Positions 1-7,280 of a DNA stretch of 64,000 bases are shown piece by piece. A program made the translations under genes and the position numbers. Under the pieces are notes generated by a model. That model made no database searches. It was not told the DNA's origin and was given only the letters and a program-made list of their open reading frames with translations. The stretch lies in NCBI GenBank assembly GCA_017481115.1, contig JAFUPP010000039.1, positions 1 to 64,000 on the forward strand. The letters run 5' to 3'. This DNA comes from Clostridia bacterium. GTDB lineage: Bacteria > Bacillota > Clostridia > Oscillospirales > Acutalibacteraceae. Position 1 is the first letter of the stretch. The number at the start of each line of letters is the position of its first letter.

Positions 1-1259
1 AATGCCTTCGATAGCCGATACGTCTACCTTGCGGTCAAGACCCTGCTGTTTGCAGTATTCGACGGGATCTGCACCATCCTCGATAACGGCAATGAGTATC
101 TTCTTACCTGCGTTACGGTTGATGTCACCCTTTTCGACCATCTTGATAATGGCGGCAAGGTCCTTTGCGGTGATCTGCAGCTCGTTAAGGGTATCTCCCT
201 TCTTACGAAGCACGCCCGCACAGTCGGTGAGTATCCAGACCGATGTTTCCTTTGCGTTACAGCCGAGAGCAACGGTTTCATCAAGAAGTGATGAAAGCTT
301 GTGGTTTGAAAGAAGCATCTCTATCTCGACGTCGGGAATGCCTGCAGCGGCATACTCCTCTGCCTTTTCGTCCACCGCAACCGGCTTTTGTTGCTTGATT
401 TTTTCAAGCCATTCGTCATCAATGATGATGGGCATAAGGTTTGCATCGGGGAAGTAGCGGTAATCCGCCTCGGTCTCCTTATTACGCATAGCAAAGGTCT
501 TGCCCGAAACATCATCAAAACGTCTTGTTTCCTGAACAAGCTCTTCGGTCTCAAACTCAAGAGCATCCATGTGACGCTGTGACTCGTAACGGATGGCACG
601 TTCTATGGCTTCAAAGGAGCTCATATTCTTGATTTCGGTTCTTACGCCGAACTCCTCGCTTCCTTCGGGACGAACCGAGATGTTTACGTCGCAACGCATT
701 GCACCCTCTTCGCACTCGGAGATACCGCCCGATCGGAACATTGATTTAAGCTTGTTAAGGTAGGTAACTACCTCTTCAGCACTTCTAAAATCGGGCTGAG
801 TAACTATCTCGATAAGAGGAACACTTGTACGGTTGAAGTCAACAAAGGATGATCTTCCGCCGTGAACCAGCTTTCCTGCATCCTCCTCCATATGAATCTG
901 CTTAATGCGGATATCACGGTTGCCCTGCGAGGTCTTGAGGGTAACGCATCCATCGGTGCAGATGGGGTGGTTAAGCTGGGTTATCTGATATGCACAGGGC
1001 AGATCGGGATAATAGTAATTCTTTTTATCAAATGTAGTGTAGCGATTGATGTTACAGTTGAGCATAAGACCCGCTGTAACCGCAAGCTCTACGACCCTTT
1101 TGTTCATTACGGGAAGCATTCCGGGCATACCGGAACAGGCGGGACAAACGCAGTCGTTAGGCTCGTTTGCGGCAGAATGACCACCGCAAGAGCAAAATAT
1201 TTTTGATTTTGTATCAAGTTCTACGTGGGTCTCAAGACCGATGACAAGCTCGTATTTCA
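1..1259 (-). CDS. gatB: Asp-tRNA(Asn)/Glu-tRNA(Gln) amidotransferase subunit B, C-terminally truncated by the window edge
   Basis: A manual reverse-complement translation from 1259 downward gives MKYELVIGLETHVELDTKSKIFCSCGGHSAANEPNDCVCPACSGMPGMLPVMNKRVVE...QIHMEEDAGKLVHGG...YRYFPDANLMPIII with no stop through position 1. This is the canonical GatB N-terminus. It is absent from the ORF track because its stop lies outside the window. Confidence 0.9.
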
Positions 1260-2457: not shown

Positions 2458-4533
2458 TCACTTTACAAGTCTGGGTACCTGCCAGCTGTCCTCGCTTCTC
2501 TCGGGAGCACCCGAAAGAAGTTCTTCTCTTGTGAAGGGCTGTTTACGCTCATCCTCACGAAGAACATTGGTCATAGGCATTACGTGTACCATTTCTTCAA
2601 CATTTTCGGTGTCTATTGTGTTTAAAATCTCCTCGTTTTTGCTCATCATCTTAAAGATATCCTGCATTACGTTTTCTTCCTCATCGGTAAGGGATATCTG
2701 ATTGAGCTGCTGGGCATTTGAGAAGGTGGAACGCTTTTGTCCTGCACCTCGGCCGCCCGAACCCGCTGTCATACGTGATGCAAGTGCGTTGCCGTTTCCG
2801 AGAAGGTGTACGTCCTCAAGCTGCTGATTGGTGACCTCACTAGGTGCACCGAGCAACAGATCCTGTGCATTACCGTTAAGCGGGAATGCAATAACGTCAA
2901 GTATCTTTTCTTCATCGGTAAGAAGCATTACCATACGGTCAACACCGGGAGCCATACCTGCGTGGGGAGGTGCGCCGTACTGGAACGCGTTGTAAAGCGC
3001 GTTGAATCTTGCTTTAAGCTCATCCTCGCTGTATCCTGCGATATCAAAAGCCTTTTTCATTATGTCTACATCGTGGTTACGAACCGCGCCCGATGCAAGC
3101 TCTATACCGTTACATACAAGGTCGTACTGATATGCAAGTATCTCGGTAGGCTCCTTGTTTAAAAGAGCATCCATTCCGCCCTGCGGCATAGAGAAGGGGT
3201 TGTGTGTGAATATGGTGTCGCCCGTTTCCTCATCGTTTTCGTACATGGGGAAGTCTACAACAAAGCAGAATTCGAATGCATCGTCTTTAATAAGGTCAAG
3301 CTGTTCCTTTTTAGCAAGCCAGGTACGGATGTGTCCTGCCTTCTTTTCGGTGTCATTTTTCTTGTCGTCACAGATAAAGAAGAGTGTTTCGCCCTCCTTA
3401 ACACCTGTGATATCTATAATTTCCTTCTTCTTTGCATCGCTTAAGAACTTTGCGATAGGTCCTGCAAACACGCCCTCTTTAAGGGTGATGTAACCAAGTC
3501 CGCCAAGACCTACCTCGGCACTTGTAGCAAACTTTAAGGAATCCTCAAAGAATTTGTTTGACTTACCTTTGCAGTCGGCAACGATACCGCGAACGGGTCT
3601 GCCCTTAAATGCAGGGAAATCAACATCCGAGAAAAACTCGGTAAGGTCGCATATCAAAAGGGGGTTACGAAGGTCGGGTTTATCCGAGCCGTAGAGCATC
3701 ATCGACTCTGCATAAGGGATACGTCTGAAGGGCTTTTCGGTAATTCTTTTATCCGAGAAGGTCTTGAAGGTGTCGTAAATGACATCCTCGCATATATCAA
3801 GTACCTCTTCTTGTGTTGCAAATGCCATTTCAAAGTCGAGCTGGTAAAATTCACCGGGTGAACGGTCGGCTCTGGCATCCTCATCTCTGAAGCAGGGTGC
3901 TATCTGGAAGTATTTATCAAAGCCCGATACCATAAGCAGCTGCTTGAACTGCTGGGGAGCCTGCGGAAGTGCATAAAACTTGCCCGGATGCTTACGGCTG
4001 GGTACAAGGAAGTCTCTTGCGCCCTCGGGCGAGGATGCGGTAAGAATAGGTGTCTGCATCTCAAGAAAATCCTTCTGCTCCATTTTTTGACGCAAATGAC
4101 GGATGATCTTTGAACGCATTACGAGATTATTGTGGTTTTTGGGGTTACGAAGATCAAGAAAACGGTATTTAAGACGAAGCTCGTCCTTGCTCATTCTTGA
4201 TGCTCTGACCTCAAAGGGAAGCATATTCTTGCTCTTGCCCAAAACGGTAAGAGAATCGACAATAAGCTCAACATAACCGGTGTCGATCTTTTCGTTTACG
4301 GTGTCGGGATCCCTCTTTTCAACCCTACCGCTTACCGAAATGACCGTCTCGCGATTTACGTTTTTAAGAAGCTCCTCATTATGAATGACCACCTGGGTCA
4401 CACCCGTGTAGTCACGAAGATCAAGAAATATAACGCCGCCGTGATCTCGAATAACATCCACCCAGCCGGCAAGCTCAACCGTCTGACCGATATGCTCATC
4501 ACGGATATCGTTACAATGCAGCGTTCTGTACAT
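2458..4533 (-). CDS. aspS: Aspartyl-tRNA synthetase fused in frame to a C-terminal GatC domain (691 aa)
   Basis: The N-terminal roughly 590 aa are bacterial AspRS (MYRTLHCNDIRDEHIGQTVELAGWVDVIRDHGGVIFLDLRD...FRDEDARADR...PPHAGMAPGVDR...LGAPSEVTNQQLEDVHL). The frame then continues without a stop through a Gly/Ser-rich linker into a GatC-like segment. That segment reads LTDEEENVMQDIFKMMSKNEEILNTIDTENVEEMVHVMPMTNVLREDE...SWQVPRLVK and is followed by TGA at 2458-2460. The ATG at 4533 has GGAGG 8 nt upstream. Confidence 0.85.
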   Translation of the reverse strand: MYRTLHCNDIRDEHIGQTVELAGWVDVIRDHGGVIFLDLRDYTGVTQVVIHNEELLKNVNRETVISVSGRVEKRDPDTVNEKIDTGYVELIVDSLTVLGKSKNMLPFEVRASRMSKDELRLKYRFLDLRNPKNHNNLVMRSKIIRHLRQKMEQKDFLEMQTPILTASSPEGARDFLVPSRKHPGKFYALPQAPQQFKQLLMVSGFDKYFQIAPCFRDEDARADRSPGEFYQLDFEMAFATQEEVLDICEDVIYDTFKTFSDKRITEKPFRRIPYAESMMLYGSDKPDLRNPLLICDLTEFFSDVDFPAFKGRPVRGIVADCKGKSNKFFEDSLKFATSAEVGLGGLGYITLKEGVFAGPIAKFLSDAKKKEIIDITGVKEGETLFFICDDKKNDTEKKAGHIRTWLAKKEQLDLIKDDAFEFCFVVDFPMYENDEETGDTIFTHNPFSMPQGGMDALLNKEPTEILAYQYDLVCNGIELASGAVRNHDVDIMKKAFDIAGYSEDELKARFNALYNAFQYGAPPHAGMAPGVDRMVMLLTDEEKILDVIAFPLNGNAQDLLLGAPSEVTNQQLEDVHLLGNGNALASRMTAGSGGRGAGQKRSTFSNAQQLNQISLTDEEENVMQDIFKMMSKNEEILNTIDTENVEEMVHVMPMTNVLREDERKQPFTREELLSGAPERSEDSWQVPRLVK

Positions 4534-4770
4534 AGTATTACCTCCCAAAATTGCAAAAATAAAAGCCCCGAGAATATTTTCATATTCTCGGGACGAGTAA
4601 ACAAAATTCACCCGCGGTGCCACCCGCATTGATGCAAAAAAGCATCCTCTTTTAATATAAGATTGTGTAAAAACGGAGCGTTCCCAAACCTACTACTCAT
4701 CCCAAACGCGCTTTCAGTCGCCGACGCGTTCTCCCTGACGGACTTTCCATAAAGGCCGAGTTTCCATTAG
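4534..4770 (-). promoter_or_regulatory. T-box riboswitch leader of the aspS-gatC-gatA'-gatB operon, including an intrinsic terminator at 4563-4597
   Basis: The minus-strand sequence AATGCGGGTGGCACCGCGGGTG (4605-4626) matches the T-box consensus GGGUGGNACCGCG. It is followed by the hairpin CCCGAGAATAT-gaaa-ATATTCTCGGG and the run GCTTTTATTTTT immediately upstream of the aspS RBS. A stem-I-like GGAG...GGGAACG-CTCC segment suggests an AAC (Asn) specifier, but that call is tentative. Confidence 0.8.
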
Positions 4771-4771
4771 T

Positions 4772-4799
4772 ATTATAGCAAAAATTACGGCTTTGTCAA
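4772..4799 (-). promoter_or_regulatory. Sigma-A type promoter for the T-box leader and aspS
   Basis: On the minus strand, TTGACA (4799-4794), a 16-nt spacer and TATAAT (4777-4772). Confidence 0.7.
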
Positions 4800-4855
4800 C
4801 AAATTTTTTTGCCGCTAAAACTATCTTATGAAGATTTTTCGTCTTTATTCCGGGT

Positions 4856-5101
4856 CTAATATTTTTTATCAAACGAGAGCTCAATACCGTATGCTCTCTC
4901 GGGTATCTCAAGTTCTGTCTGATTTTCCTCACAGTTTTTTCCGCAGGAGGATAATTCCGTATAGAAACGCAATCCGGCTTTGCGCTGAAAATGCTCACAT
5001 ACATTATCGAGTGCGGCAACGGTTTTGTTTTTCAGATCACACATTCCAAAGTTTACGTTCAGATAAGGATAATGCTCACAACACCAGCAGCGTACTTCCA
5101 T
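4856..5101 (-). CDS. Small cysteine-rich hypothetical protein (81 aa)
   Basis: The ATG at 5101 has AGGGGG 8 nt upstream. The sequence is MEVRCWCCEHYPYLNVNFGMCDLKNKTVAALDNVCEHFQRKAG..., with protein-like composition and several Cys pairs. I recognise no homolog. Confidence 0.35.
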   Translation of the reverse strand: MEVRCWCCEHYPYLNVNFGMCDLKNKTVAALDNVCEHFQRKAGLRFYTELSSCGKNCEENQTELEIPERAYGIELSFDKKY

Positions 5102-5412
5102 ATAATAACCCCCTAAATAAAAAAGCGTACCCCGAAGAGTACGCCGAAAAAGTGCTCCTCGGTAGATTACCACATCACACCGACTATCTGCATAAGCACA
5201 AAGTTCAAAGAACACCTTTTACCAGGTTATTCTTTGTGCTTATTTTCACGATAGTCGCAAGTTATTAAAATATGTGATGTGGTATGGCTTTATTTTATCA
5301 TAACATCTGTAATTTTACAATACAAAATTTATAAGCATTCTCTGTGTCCCGTATTTATATAGTATTACGGACGGTCAGGGATACCTGTCTCTACAAATTG
5401 CCCGTTTGCGAC

Positions 5413-5585
5413 TGTCAATGAGGTGCACTTCATATTTTTATTTTTTTGTCAATGATGTGTACCTCAGGTTTTCAAAAAATAACAACTTTCTGTCAATGAG
5501 GTACACCTCATATTCTGTAATAATTTTGTCAATGTAGTGTACCTCATATTTTTTAAAAAATCTGTCAATGAGGTGTGCTTCATAT
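5413..5585. repeat. Five tandem copies of a 23-bp motif TGTCAATGAGGTGYACYTCATAT, each containing a 16-bp imperfect palindrome, spaced 34-44 bp apart
   Basis: The copies lie at 5413-5435, 5447-5469, 5491-5513, 5527-5549 and 5563-5585. Copy 3 contains the perfect palindrome ATGAGGTACACCTCAT. The motif produces the spurious repetitive ORFs 5438..5623 and 5464..5661. Confidence 0.85.
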
Positions 5586-5680
5586 TTAAAATTTGATAGC
5601 AGAATGTGAAAGCGGGCGAACACAGTTCGCCCCTACTTGCTACCAACAACCACGAAGCCAAGGACTTTCCCGTCTACACG

Positions 5681-5729
5681 GCAATATATCAAAAAAACAC
5701 CGAGCGGATCACTCCGTTCGGTGCTTTGT
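5681..5729. terminator. Bidirectional intrinsic terminator downstream of rny
   Basis: A run of seven A, then the hairpin CACCGAGCGG-atcact-CCGTTCGGTG, then CTTTGTTTTTTATTTT. Confidence 0.7.
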
Positions 5730-5732
5730 TTT

Positions 5733-7280
5733 TTATTTTGCAAAGTCAATGGCACGGGATTCACGGATAAGGTTTACCTTGACCTGACCGGGATATTCCA
5801 GCTCATCTTCTATCTTTTTGACTATGTCGCGGGCGACGATAACCATCTGGTCATCCGAAATAACCTCGGGCTTGACCATAATACGGATCTCTCTACCTGC
5901 CTGAATAGCAAAGGATGAATCGATTCCGTTGAAGGAATTGGCAATTTCCTCCAGCTTTTCAAGACGCTTGATATAGTTTTCGATATTCTCACGTCTTGCA
6001 CCGGGACGTGCTGCCGAAACAGCATCCGCCGCCTGAACGATAAATGCGACAACGCTCTTTGCCTCAACATCGCCGTGGTGAGCGTGGATGGCGTGAACCA
6101 CCGCTTCGCTTTCCTTATACTTCTTGGCAACATCAACACCAAGCTGTATATGGCTTCCCTCCATCTCGTGATCGAGTGCCTTACCGATATCATGTAAAAG
6201 ACCTGCACGTCTTGCAAGGTTGATATCTGCACCGATCTCACCTGCGATAAGACCGGAAATATAGGAAACCTCCATTGAATGATTAAGAACGTTCTGGCCG
6301 TAGCTTGTACGGTAATGAAGCTTACCGAGAAGCTTAACAAGCTCGGGATGGAGACCTCTGACCGATGCATCGAGCATAGCCTTTTCGCCCTCGCTCTTGA
6401 TGACCGACTCGACATCTCTCTTTGCCTTTTCGTACATTTCCTCGATCTTTGCGGGATGAATTCGTCCGTCGGCAATTAACTTCTCAAGGGTTACACGGGC
6501 GATCTCTCTGCGAACGGGATCAAAGGATGATACGGTAATGGCTTCGGGTGTATCGTCGATAATAAGGTCAACACCCGTAATGGTTTCAAGGGTACGGATG
6601 TTTCTGCCCTCTCTACCGATTATTCTACCCTTCATTTCGTCATTAGGAAGGGCAACTGTTGAAATGGTACATTCTGAAGAATGGTCTGCGGCACAACGCT
6701 GTATTGCCTGAGAAAGAACCTCTCTTGCCTTCTCGTCGCACTCGTCACGAAGCTTTGCCTCAAAATCCATGATTTTGCCGGCCTTTTCGTGTGAAAGCTC
6801 TTCATCAAGAGCACGAAGAAGCTGCTCCTTAGCCTGCTCCTTGGTAAGACCCGAGATTTTTTCGAGCATATCAAGCTGACTTTTCTTGATAGTTTCTGCC
6901 TCTTGGAGCATTTCCTCTGCTTCCTTCTGGCGTTTGGCTATCTTTTCTTCCTTAATTTCAATGTTCTCTGTCTTTCTGTCGATAGACTCTTCTTTTTGCT
7001 GGATTCTTCTTTCCTGACGCTGAATTTCGCTGCGTCTTTCTCTAAGATCCTTTTCTGTTTCATTTCTCATCTGGAAGACTTCATCCTTGGCTTCCATAAT
7101 GATCTCTTTCTTTCTTGCTTCTGCTTCTTTGATGGCTTCATTCAGACGCTGAGTAGCCTGTTTCTCGGCAGAACCGAGTATTCCTTCAGCCTTGCGTTTA
7201 CGGAAAATTACGCCGAGCGCAAACCCGACTATGCCGAATACGACAGCTCCGATGGCGCCACCAATCAAATACTGTGTCAT
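5733..7280 (-). CDS. rny: Ribonuclease Y
   Basis: An N-terminal transmembrane helix, then a coiled-coil region, a KH domain and an HD domain ([21 protein letters not shown]). The ATG at 7280 is preceded by AAAGGAGGTG. Confidence 0.95.

Follow-up and report, generated by a model that had tools for sequence, protein, structure and literature searches.

The 64,000-nucleotide stretch of DNA analyzed here (hereafter the window) carries, between rny and aspS, five direct copies of a 23-bp unit, TGTCAATGAGGTGYACYTCATAT, all on the + strand at positions 5413-5585. Judging from its sequence and from comparison with other replicons, we tentatively propose, with somewhat less than even confidence, that this array is an orphan iteron- or centromere-like cluster of putative protein-binding sites of plasmid origin, and that the species probably obtained it from a plasmid in its recent past. 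The array has an ordered repeat anatomy and selectively conserved cores, its motif recurs on plasmids, and it is absent from relatives of the species. The kind of object is a familiar one, an iteron-, operator- or centromere-like repeat array, and what speaks for a function is indirect. The array and its units are as follows.

5413-5585, + strand: whole array, five direct 23-bp units with spacers of 11-21 bp that are 93% A+T
5413-5435, + strand: unit 1, A-type, TGTCAATGAGGTGCACTTCATAT; dyad intact with one G.T position, preceded by C
5447-5469, + strand: unit 2, B-type, degenerate, TGTCAATGATGTGTACCTCAGGT; left arm broken, preceded by TTTT, no hairpin
5491-5513, + strand: unit 3, A-type, TGTCAATGAGGTACACCTCATAT; 7-bp arms perfect, preceded by C
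5527-5549, + strand: unit 4, B-type, degenerate, TGTCAATGTAGTGTACCTCATAT; left arm broken, preceded by TTTT, no hairpin
5563-5585, + strand: unit 5, A-type, TGTCAATGAGGTGTGCTTCATAT; two G.T positions, preceded by C

The start-to-start spacings are 34, 44, 36 and 36 bp. When up to three mismatches are allowed, the 64 kb hold five matches, all of them array units, against 0.00 expected from 100 shuffles, which confirms the original prediction of five 23-bp copies at a 34-44 bp period in the rny/aspS intergenic region. Neither a 6-mismatch scan nor a weight matrix built from 14 sites found a further copy in the window, and ~6 kb of the same genome past its right end hold none, the motif scan of this genome thus covering ~70 kb. 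The 16-bp inverted repeat that had been ascribed to every copy is present in units 1, 3 and 5 as an intact 7-2-7 dyad, ATGAGGT-NN-ACYTCAT, and is not intact in units 2 and 4, where the left arm is broken to ATGATG and ATGTAG, respectively. The A/T-rich tracts noted between the units were also found (93% A+T). Every unit starts with TGT and, by inspection, can alternatively be parsed as 11-6-11, with one arm well conserved and a variable centre. The spacing corresponds to 3.2-4.2 helical turns, so that successive sites lie on different faces of the helix and are unphased.

A-type units (1, 3 and 5) and B-type units (2 and 4) alternate along the array. Tandem Repeats Finder reported a 36-bp period and also an 80-bp two-unit block in 1.9 copies, indicating that the array grew at least partly via two-unit block duplication. 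Conservation is concentrated in the cores: the 23-bp cores have a mean pairwise identity of 0.83, compared with 0.47 over the first 11 spacer nucleotides, where chance alone would give 0.44 at their composition of 93% A+T. All 11 core substitutions fall at positions 9-22, leaving the first eight bases, TGTCAATG, invariant in the five units (P ~0.009 under random placement of 11 substitutions), and A-type and B-type cores are 78-83% identical. These figures bear on one alternative, that a single plasmid-derived site was duplicated in tandem by neutral processes and has no present function. Growth by block duplication, as implied by the 80-bp higher-order repeat, would be expected under this scenario, as would the two degenerate units, the lack of a partner gene and the absence of the region from relatives. 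Neutral drift, however, would hardly leave TGTCAATG invariant while 11 substitutions accumulate elsewhere in the unit, nor keep A- and B-type cores at 78-83% identity although the spacers are at chance level across the array. Moreover, the 23-mer is maintained on several unrelated replicons (see below). Overall, we consider neutral duplication quite unlikely.

The surroundings of the array are listed below; the promoter-like site and the terminator are given as context only.

7280-5733, - strand: rny, flanking the array
5698-5723, both strands: bidirectional intrinsic terminator ending rny, ~110 bp from unit 5
~5612-5632: G+C-rich hairpin between the rny terminator and the array
5320-5292, - strand: promoter-like site, TTGTAA-17-TGATAAAAT, 93 bp from unit 1
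~5285-5165, - strand: structured RNA leader, very stable (z = -7.1), no Rfam match
5145-5124, - strand: terminator between the structured leader and the Cys-rich ORF
5101-4856, - strand: Cys-rich ORF of 81 aa, starting 312 nt from unit 1
4629-2458, - strand: aspS, flanking the array, preceded by a consensus promoter and a T-box leader

Read along the - strand, the order is therefore rny, terminator, hairpin, array, promoter-like site, structured RNA, terminator, Cys-rich ORF, T-box leader and aspS, which agrees with the earlier placement of the array downstream of the rny terminator and about 300 nt from a small Cys-rich ORF. The 81-aa product of this ORF has no homologue among 5.8 billion proteins, no Pfam or NCBIfam match and no counterpart on plasmids. 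The neighbouring genes are housekeeping genes. The host is an Acutalibacteraceae-like member of the Clostridia, its best named RNase Y match being 89% identical, and SpoIIE, encoded just past the window, identifies it as a spore-former.

The structured leader and the orphan Cys-rich ORF would be the targets of the promoter-like site at 5320-5292, which raises the possibility that the array is an upstream multi-operator for this - strand promoter, with sites ~95 to 295 bp upstream of it. A regulator recruited to the array would then control the leader and the ORF, and a single acquisition would have brought in array, promoter, leader and ORF as one cassette. In agreement with this idea, these four elements, among them the very stable leader (z = -7.1), are contiguous, and both the array and the ORF, itself without homologue in 5.8 billion proteins, are missing from the relatives examined. 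A parallel is also offered by a plasmid-like contig, L026, in which a single site lies 30 nt before another small Cys-rich ORF. This parallel is nonetheless imperfect, as the L026 site points the opposite way with respect to its ORF from the sites in the window, the small proteins of the two loci are dissimilar, and the remaining plasmid sites are not beside such ORFs. Within the window, 93 bp separate the -35 from the nearest site, the spacing is unphased, and no regulator is encoded nearby. We thus regard the operator hypothesis as rather unlikely.

We searched the surroundings for a protein that could act on the array. No rep, parAB or other candidate binder was found in the 64-kb window, and tblastn of all ORFs from the motif-bearing plasmids against the window gave no match. 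Neither parA/parB nor parM/parR was found among the genes within 10 kb on either side or in a Pfam scan of 20 further window ORFs. The Cys-rich ORF was considered as the cognate binder and rejected, being an orphan with no similarity to the small ORF of L026. On the DNA side, there is no DnaA box (up to one mismatch) in 4630-5740, where the spacers are 93% A+T, no TGTCGAA box beside the array and no parS-like site in the window. Proximity to a replication origin or terminus was likewise discarded: the GC-skew change at ~54 kb tracks gene orientation, and no dnaA or parB was seen.

We then compared the locus among strains and relatives. Six metagenome contigs from five assemblies that carry the same rny or small ORF are >99.7% identical to the window, and the array is identical, without copy-number variation, in all five contigs that span it, a comparison confined to one species and, in effect, to one strain. 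The nearest relatives found, whose RNase Y is 89% and 77-78% identical, have ymdB directly after rny; the array and the small ORF are absent, and the neighbours differ on both sides. Synteny thus breaks directly after rny in the array-bearing species. Given that the relatives have rny-ymdB without the array or the small ORF, the rny-aspS array region is species-specific, which argues against a conserved regulatory element. The conservation of the intergenic region in close relatives, by which the original prediction was to be judged, was accordingly not observed. On present evidence, the array is a modest lineage-restricted curiosity rather than a conserved rny/aspS regulatory element.

Searches beyond the species point to plasmids. 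An exact-pattern scan of reference genomes (185,579 species, one genome each; 596 Gb) returned three loci, only one of which is genuine, the other two being chance matches inside genes. A metagenome scan returned eight loci, four of them again chance matches inside genes; the loci discarded for this reason in the two collections are L016/L023, L017, L025 and L028. A high-copy dispersed repeat, the outcome that would have refuted the original prediction, is thus not what we find. Viral contigs gave 15 single matches to the degenerate motif, all inside long ORFs and about the number that chance predicts, and two-unit and variant patterns matched only coding sequence in these contigs, again by chance. 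Phage and plasmid collections gave no BLAST match to the intergenic region. All genuine, that is intergenic, matches outside the species are on plasmids, on plasmid-like contigs or on a possibly mobile segment, and the motif-bearing plasmids carry one or two sites each, never an array. Rfam and the searchable literature hold no description of the motif or of its distribution, the literature matches being unrelated primers only.

The best defined carrier is pRGI01272 (HG796447), a 1839-bp circular plasmid that was also recovered as L024 and as a concatemer, L027. It is a pMV158-type rolling-circle plasmid with a Rep_OBD protein and has two inverted sites ~100 bp apart. Its site 2, TGTCAAGGAGGTGTACTTCCTAT, keeps the dyad through a both-sided change from T-A to G-C. 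The double-strand origin (dso) of the plasmid, with its CACTACGAC nick hairpin and CCATACC Rep-binding repeats, lies away from the motif sites. In a relative, L022, the two sites are direct and the same G+C-rich hairpin is fused to both; compared with L022, one pRGI01272 site amounts to a clean 34-nt indel. Rolling-circle plasmids with a 55-70% identical Rep lack the motif and have nothing but rep and the dso in common with pRGI01272, indicating that the site is accessory on these plasmids; none of the viral contigs that encode relatives of the pRGI01272 Rep has it.

Two further contigs link the motif to other replication genes. L021, which is mobilisable (Mob_Pre relaxase, 8e-59), encodes a Rep of an uncharacterised family that is 30-34% identical to plasmid entries named "RepA" or "putative replication protein," and its single site lies 4 nt past the rep stop codon; the site is followed by three TGTCGAA-type boxes at 10-bp spacing and an A/T tract, giving the region an origin-like look. 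In L026, the one site falls within the promoter region of an operon composed of the small Cys-rich ORF and rep; the start codon of this ORF follows 30 nt downstream, and the dyad forms the spacer of a promoter-like TTGTCA-17-TAGACT. The L026 Rep, likewise uncharacterised, shares an SG.G.H.Y motif with the L021 Rep. The array is tied to these carriers by sequence identity, unit 3 matching the L021 site over 24 nt and the pRGI01272 and L022 sites over 22 nt. Unit 5 is identical to site c of L018, a 2.8-kb contig from a Clostridiales metagenome-assembled genome in which three sites surround an arsR-cadA cadmium-resistance operon: one flank has a direct pair, 34 bp apart, and the opposite flank a single inverted site, TGTCA being outermost. 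The same operon in relatives (CadA 77% identical) is in a chromosomal context and has no sites. An apparent likeness to CadC/ArsR operators was dismissed, since the common ATATGAGGTRCA is made up of the operator edge and the arsR Shine-Dalgarno sequence. Neither pCD-METRO nor plasmids with related Reps carry a comparable repeat.

The arrangement in L018 and pRGI01272 raised the question of mobile elements. According to this explanation, the array would be the relic of a mobile element or of a recombination site, a solitary end left at a rearrangement breakpoint, either as a multi-site end of the Tn7/Mu/IS21 kind, which starts with 5'-TG, or as Xer/pdif-like or resolvase-like core sites. TGT opens every unit and the sites are repeated, as at Tn7/Mu/IS21-type ends; no inverted partner end was found in the 64 kb, even at six mismatches, and no transposase or recombinase in the window or on the small plasmids. 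A breakpoint would fit the break in synteny right after rny, and mobility would fit the sites that bracket arsR-cadA in L018, with TGTCA outermost and no sites around the relatives' operon, as well as the ~100 bp bracketed by inverted sites in pRGI01272 and the clean gain or loss of one 34-nt site between pRGI01272 and L022. By inspection, however, the L018 and pRGI01272 boundaries lack a target-site duplication; an active element should yield many matches and the motif is extremely rare; and transposon-end sites are normally without dyad symmetry. As for recombination sites of the pdif, Xer, res or hix kind, the likeness lies in inverted sites that bracket a metal-resistance operon (L018) or a 100-bp segment (pRGI01272), in a dyad with a variable centre and one better arm, compatible with the 11-6-11 parsing, and in the fact that small plasmids without the enzyme carry it as an accessory cis-site. 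They differ in that no recombinase is associated with the array. To our knowledge, the motif is unlike the dif, res and hix consensus sequences, and five direct copies 34-44 bp apart match no known recombination-site layout. The motif also recalls REP, BIME and MITE sequences, being short, extragenic and imperfectly palindromic, with conservation in its 5' flank; it occurs singly, in tandem and in inverted pairs, and individual units are gained or lost. Unlike them, it has a tiny copy number (one genuine locus in 185,579 reference genomes), no identified RAYT or transposase, and no target-site duplication in L018 and pRGI01272. Taken together, we judge the mobile-element explanation unlikely.

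The next question was whether the units act as nucleic acid structures rather than as duplex sites. A string of small hairpins with U-tracts had been suggested should the array be transcribed, a suggestion that fared poorly: three of the five isolated units fold on the + strand (unit 1, -4.3; unit 3, -7.0; unit 5, -4.3 kcal/mol), units 2 and 4 do not, unit 3 alone folds on the - strand, and no promoter feeds the array. A version of this idea that extends to the plasmids is that TGTCA plus the stem-loop, read on the + strand, works as a strand-specific hairpin of RNA or single-stranded DNA; it could serve in priming, be the target of a nuclease or relaxase, or be bound as RNA by a protein. Among the carriers are several rolling-circle or mobilisable replicons, which pass through single-stranded stages, and pRGI01272 site 2 keeps its stem by a both-sided change. 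Over the 14 real sites, which may share ancestry and in which the search pattern fixed part of the sequence, stem pairing is 92/98 on the TGTCA strand and 84/98 on the opposite strand, a difference that arises because most deviations are C-to-T or A-to-G and make G.T wobbles on the TGTCA strand. This hint of a strand-specific structure is not significant: 53 of 500 shuffles pair equally well, and with a single both-sided pair change (n = 1) covariation does not exceed that of the shuffles. In addition, two units are unfoldable and the others reach only -4.3 to -7 kcal/mol, no convincing + strand promoter for the array was found, and Rfam gave no meaningful match at E<=1. The site is also dispensable for rolling-circle replication, since close relatives of the plasmids are without it, and the dso of pRGI01272 lies elsewhere; as for single-strand origins, the RSB and CS-6 elements of ssoA differ in sequence from the motif and show no resemblance to it (PMC4598088). 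We thus consider strand-specific hairpins very unlikely and prefer a model in which a dimer recognizes the site as double-stranded DNA and makes an additional asymmetric contact at TGTCA.

Other structural or transcriptional readings fared no better. Although array and CRISPR have in common regularly spaced, partly palindromic repeats, and T-rich tracts follow some units on the + strand as they would in a run of terminators, a degenerate CRISPR array or terminator series is extremely improbable. The spacers are 11-21 nt long, 93% A+T and non-unique, compared with unique spacers of ~26-72 nt in CRISPR; no CRISPR repeat family of Rfam was matched (CRISPR-DR), no cas gene is present among the neighbours examined, and the earlier judgment that the array is not CRISPR-like thus holds. 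A terminator scan called none of the units, their hairpins range from 0 to -7 kcal/mol, and the array has no + strand gene upstream of it. A series of promoters was rejected as well: the units end in a perfect TTGACA on the - strand but have no usable -10 at 16-18 bp on either strand, a plausible -10 accompanying only the L026 site and possibly L018 site c. A sigma-54 promoter was rejected by inspection.

Among known systems, the closest parallels to the array are found in plasmid replication and partition. One is the iteron arrays of theta-replicating plasmids, for which the C. difficile plasmid pCD6 served as the one clostridial origin compared: at a distance of 200 bp downstream of its repA it carries 7.0 perfect iterons of 35 bp. 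Like the array, these repeats are direct and uniformly oriented, recur every ~35 bp, the same period as three of the four array spacings, and lie in A/T-rich non-coding DNA; the L021 site is likewise immediately downstream of rep. The pCD6 iterons differ in being contiguous, identical and without dyad, whereas the array consists of 23-bp cores with unrelated spacers and no rep nearby, and pCD6 RepA has only the short SG.G.H.Y motif in common with the L021 Rep. At least three direct repeats of ~17-35 bp in one orientation at a regular period, a feature of iteron origins, are thus present in the array, while the adjacent rep gene is missing from the 64-kb window. In the F plasmid, the partition centromere sopC consists of direct repeats of 43 bp, and SopB binds the 16-bp 7-2-7 dyad that each of them holds. 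The array recalls this layout, with spaced direct repeats in which such a 7-2-7 16-bp dyad is intact in three of the five units and broken in the other two; it differs from sopC in that no parA/parB is encoded in the window and its sequence is unrelated to sopC or to canonical parS.

Based on these parallels, we propose how an orphan cluster of plasmid-type sites could work. One protein dimer would bind each unit on the 7-2-7 dyad ATGAGGT-NN-ACCTCAT, and the 8-bp TGTCAATG, which runs into the dyad, would provide an extra asymmetric contact on the TGTCA side. The alternation of strong (A-type) and weak (B-type) units, together with easily bent A/T spacers, may allow dimers to load side by side and to form a single nucleoprotein complex. 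The binder would act in trans, supplied by the host or by a helper plasmid, given that none is encoded within 64 kb and that the smallest carriers encode only their own Rep. We infer protein binding, a plasmid origin and, for the present day, either titration or bridging of the binder, in a manner akin to incompatibility, control of the adjacent promoter, or no effect. The earlier description of the array as a multi-site target for a dimeric binder is supported in part and remains the best reading: conserved cores, the 7-2-7 dyad and recurrence on plasmids speak for it, while the search for a binder or a regulon found none. The plasmid reading is further supported by the position of the motif next to rep or to origin-like sequence on small plasmids. 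Against it count the lack of rep or parAB in the window, the housekeeping neighbours, the lack of an adjoining DnaA or TGTCGAA box, the single or paired sites on the plasmids, the unphased spacing and the dyads broken in two of five units.

A related model, which we consider distinctly unlikely, is that the array is functional through an interplay between host and plasmids. In one version, the array would comprise the native docking sites of a lineage-specific host protein, and small plasmids of spore-forming gut Clostridia would copy single sites in order to hitch-hike, thereby gaining segregation or forespore capture. Phage phi29, which exploits host Spo0J/parS and Spo0A boxes, provides an analogy. 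In the other version, the array would serve as an anti-plasmid decoy on the chromosome: by titrating an initiator or regulator encoded by plasmids, it would keep out those that bear the motif.

If the plasmid-type reading is true, the 23-mer is a previously undescribed cis-site common to unrelated gut Clostridia plasmids and at least one chromosome, and its presence suggests that an uncultured, little-studied Acutalibacteraceae-like lineage has a DNA-binding protein that acts on it in trans. Such a binder would reveal how Rep-only plasmids of 1.8 kb use host or helper functions and would also show whether chromosomes can hold iteron-like decoys. If the array is instead a decaying plasmid relic, it represents an ordinary footprint of horizontal transfer.

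We also asked whether TGTCGAA-type boxes, such as those that follow the L021 site, accompany the motif universally. This idea was rejected, since enrichment is limited to L021, L022 and pRGI01272 and does not extend to L018, L026 or the window. On the three plasmids where they accompany the site, these boxes resemble Spo0A boxes.

In the rny loci of three relatives (L029, L030 and L031), compared with window positions 5733-7280, rny is followed by ymdB, an order also found in Bacillus. Here rny is on its own, with the Big_14 and serpin genes on one side and the aspS-gatCAB cluster on the other, and the array of five 23-bp units is therefore located at a synteny breakpoint. The features that surround the array in the window are the following:

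5612-5632: strong G+C-rich hairpin, GGGCGAACACAGTTCGCCC, with the terminator of rny on one side and the array on the other
5320..5292, minus strand: promoter-like site preceding the structured leader
5165-5285, minus strand: structured leader, a long hairpin-type RNA of about 120 nt
5124-5145, minus strand: intrinsic terminator between the structured leader and the ORF
4856-5101, minus strand: orphan Cys-rich ORF of 81 aa
4586-4808, minus strand: T-box leader of aspS, from an Rfam model match
2458-4629, minus strand: aspS, encoding an AspRS with a C-terminally fused GatC domain (PF02686)

On the aspS side, the minus strand thus reads promoter-like site, structured leader, terminator, strong ribosome-binding site and 81-aa ORF, in that order. 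The leader region (191 nt) is very stable, with a minimum free energy of -67 kcal/mol (z = -7.1), and the structured leader gave no Rfam match. It may act in cis as a regulatory leader not yet described, or as a small RNA. For the Cys-rich ORF, no homologue was found among 5.8 billion proteins searched. The sequence TTGCGACTGTC (5406-5416, plus strand), at the junction with unit 1 of the array, forms an inverted repeat with GATAGTCGCAA (5250-5260, plus strand), within the structured leader, over 10 of 11 bases, a match that may be due to chance. On the rny side, the hairpin at 5612-5632 is followed by a U-run on neither strand, and the region 5590-5740 has a more stable fold on each strand than its shuffled controls (z = -4.4 and -3.6).

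Further along the minus strand, gatA and gatB come after aspS. The T-box leader of aspS reaches only 42 bits, against a gathering score of 93 in Rfam: alignment is good over the conserved 3′ T-box/antiterminator part (model positions ~149-219), only ~7 positions align across model positions 15-148, and Stem I is cut down to 8 nt, with ~117 nt of inserted sequence in its stead.

On three plasmids or plasmid-like contigs, the 23-bp site is adjoined by clusters of (A/T)TGTCG(A/G)A boxes, spaced 10-11 bp where adjacent:

L021, a plasmid-like contig with Rep: 1046-1072
L022, a relative of pRGI01272: 1095-1137, minus strand
pRGI01272 (HG796447), a 1839-bp rolling-circle plasmid: ~880-900, minus strand

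These boxes fit the Spo0A-box consensus TGTCGAA, but they could equally well be Rep iterons; none was found at the window array. The same three molecules have in common an element of 105 bp that contains a long G+C-rich hairpin:

L021: 2866-2963
L022: 1742-1845
pRGI01272: 1187-1290

The L021 copy, just upstream of a Mob_Pre relaxase gene, is 79-82% identical to those of the two tiny rolling-circle plasmids. These carry no mob gene, and on them the element is probably an orphan oriT permitting mobilisation in trans. In L018, a 2.8-kb contig of a Clostridiales MAG, the cadmium-resistance operon arsR-cadA lies between inverted motif copies (60-116, plus strand; 2654-2676, minus strand), beyond which 59 and 96 bp remain to the two ends of the contig. 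The layout is similar to that of a pdif module or a mobile insertion cassette.

Plasmid pCD6 (NC_005326) carries the following repeats:

3915-4158: seven perfect iterons of 35 bp each, located 200 bp downstream of repA

The same iterons were reportedly part of the original description of pCD6, with which the sequence here agrees. The C-terminal HTH match of pCD6 RepA is weak, under Pfam's cut-off, and an SG.G.H.Y motif is common to this protein and to the Rep proteins of L021 and of L026, another plasmid-like contig.
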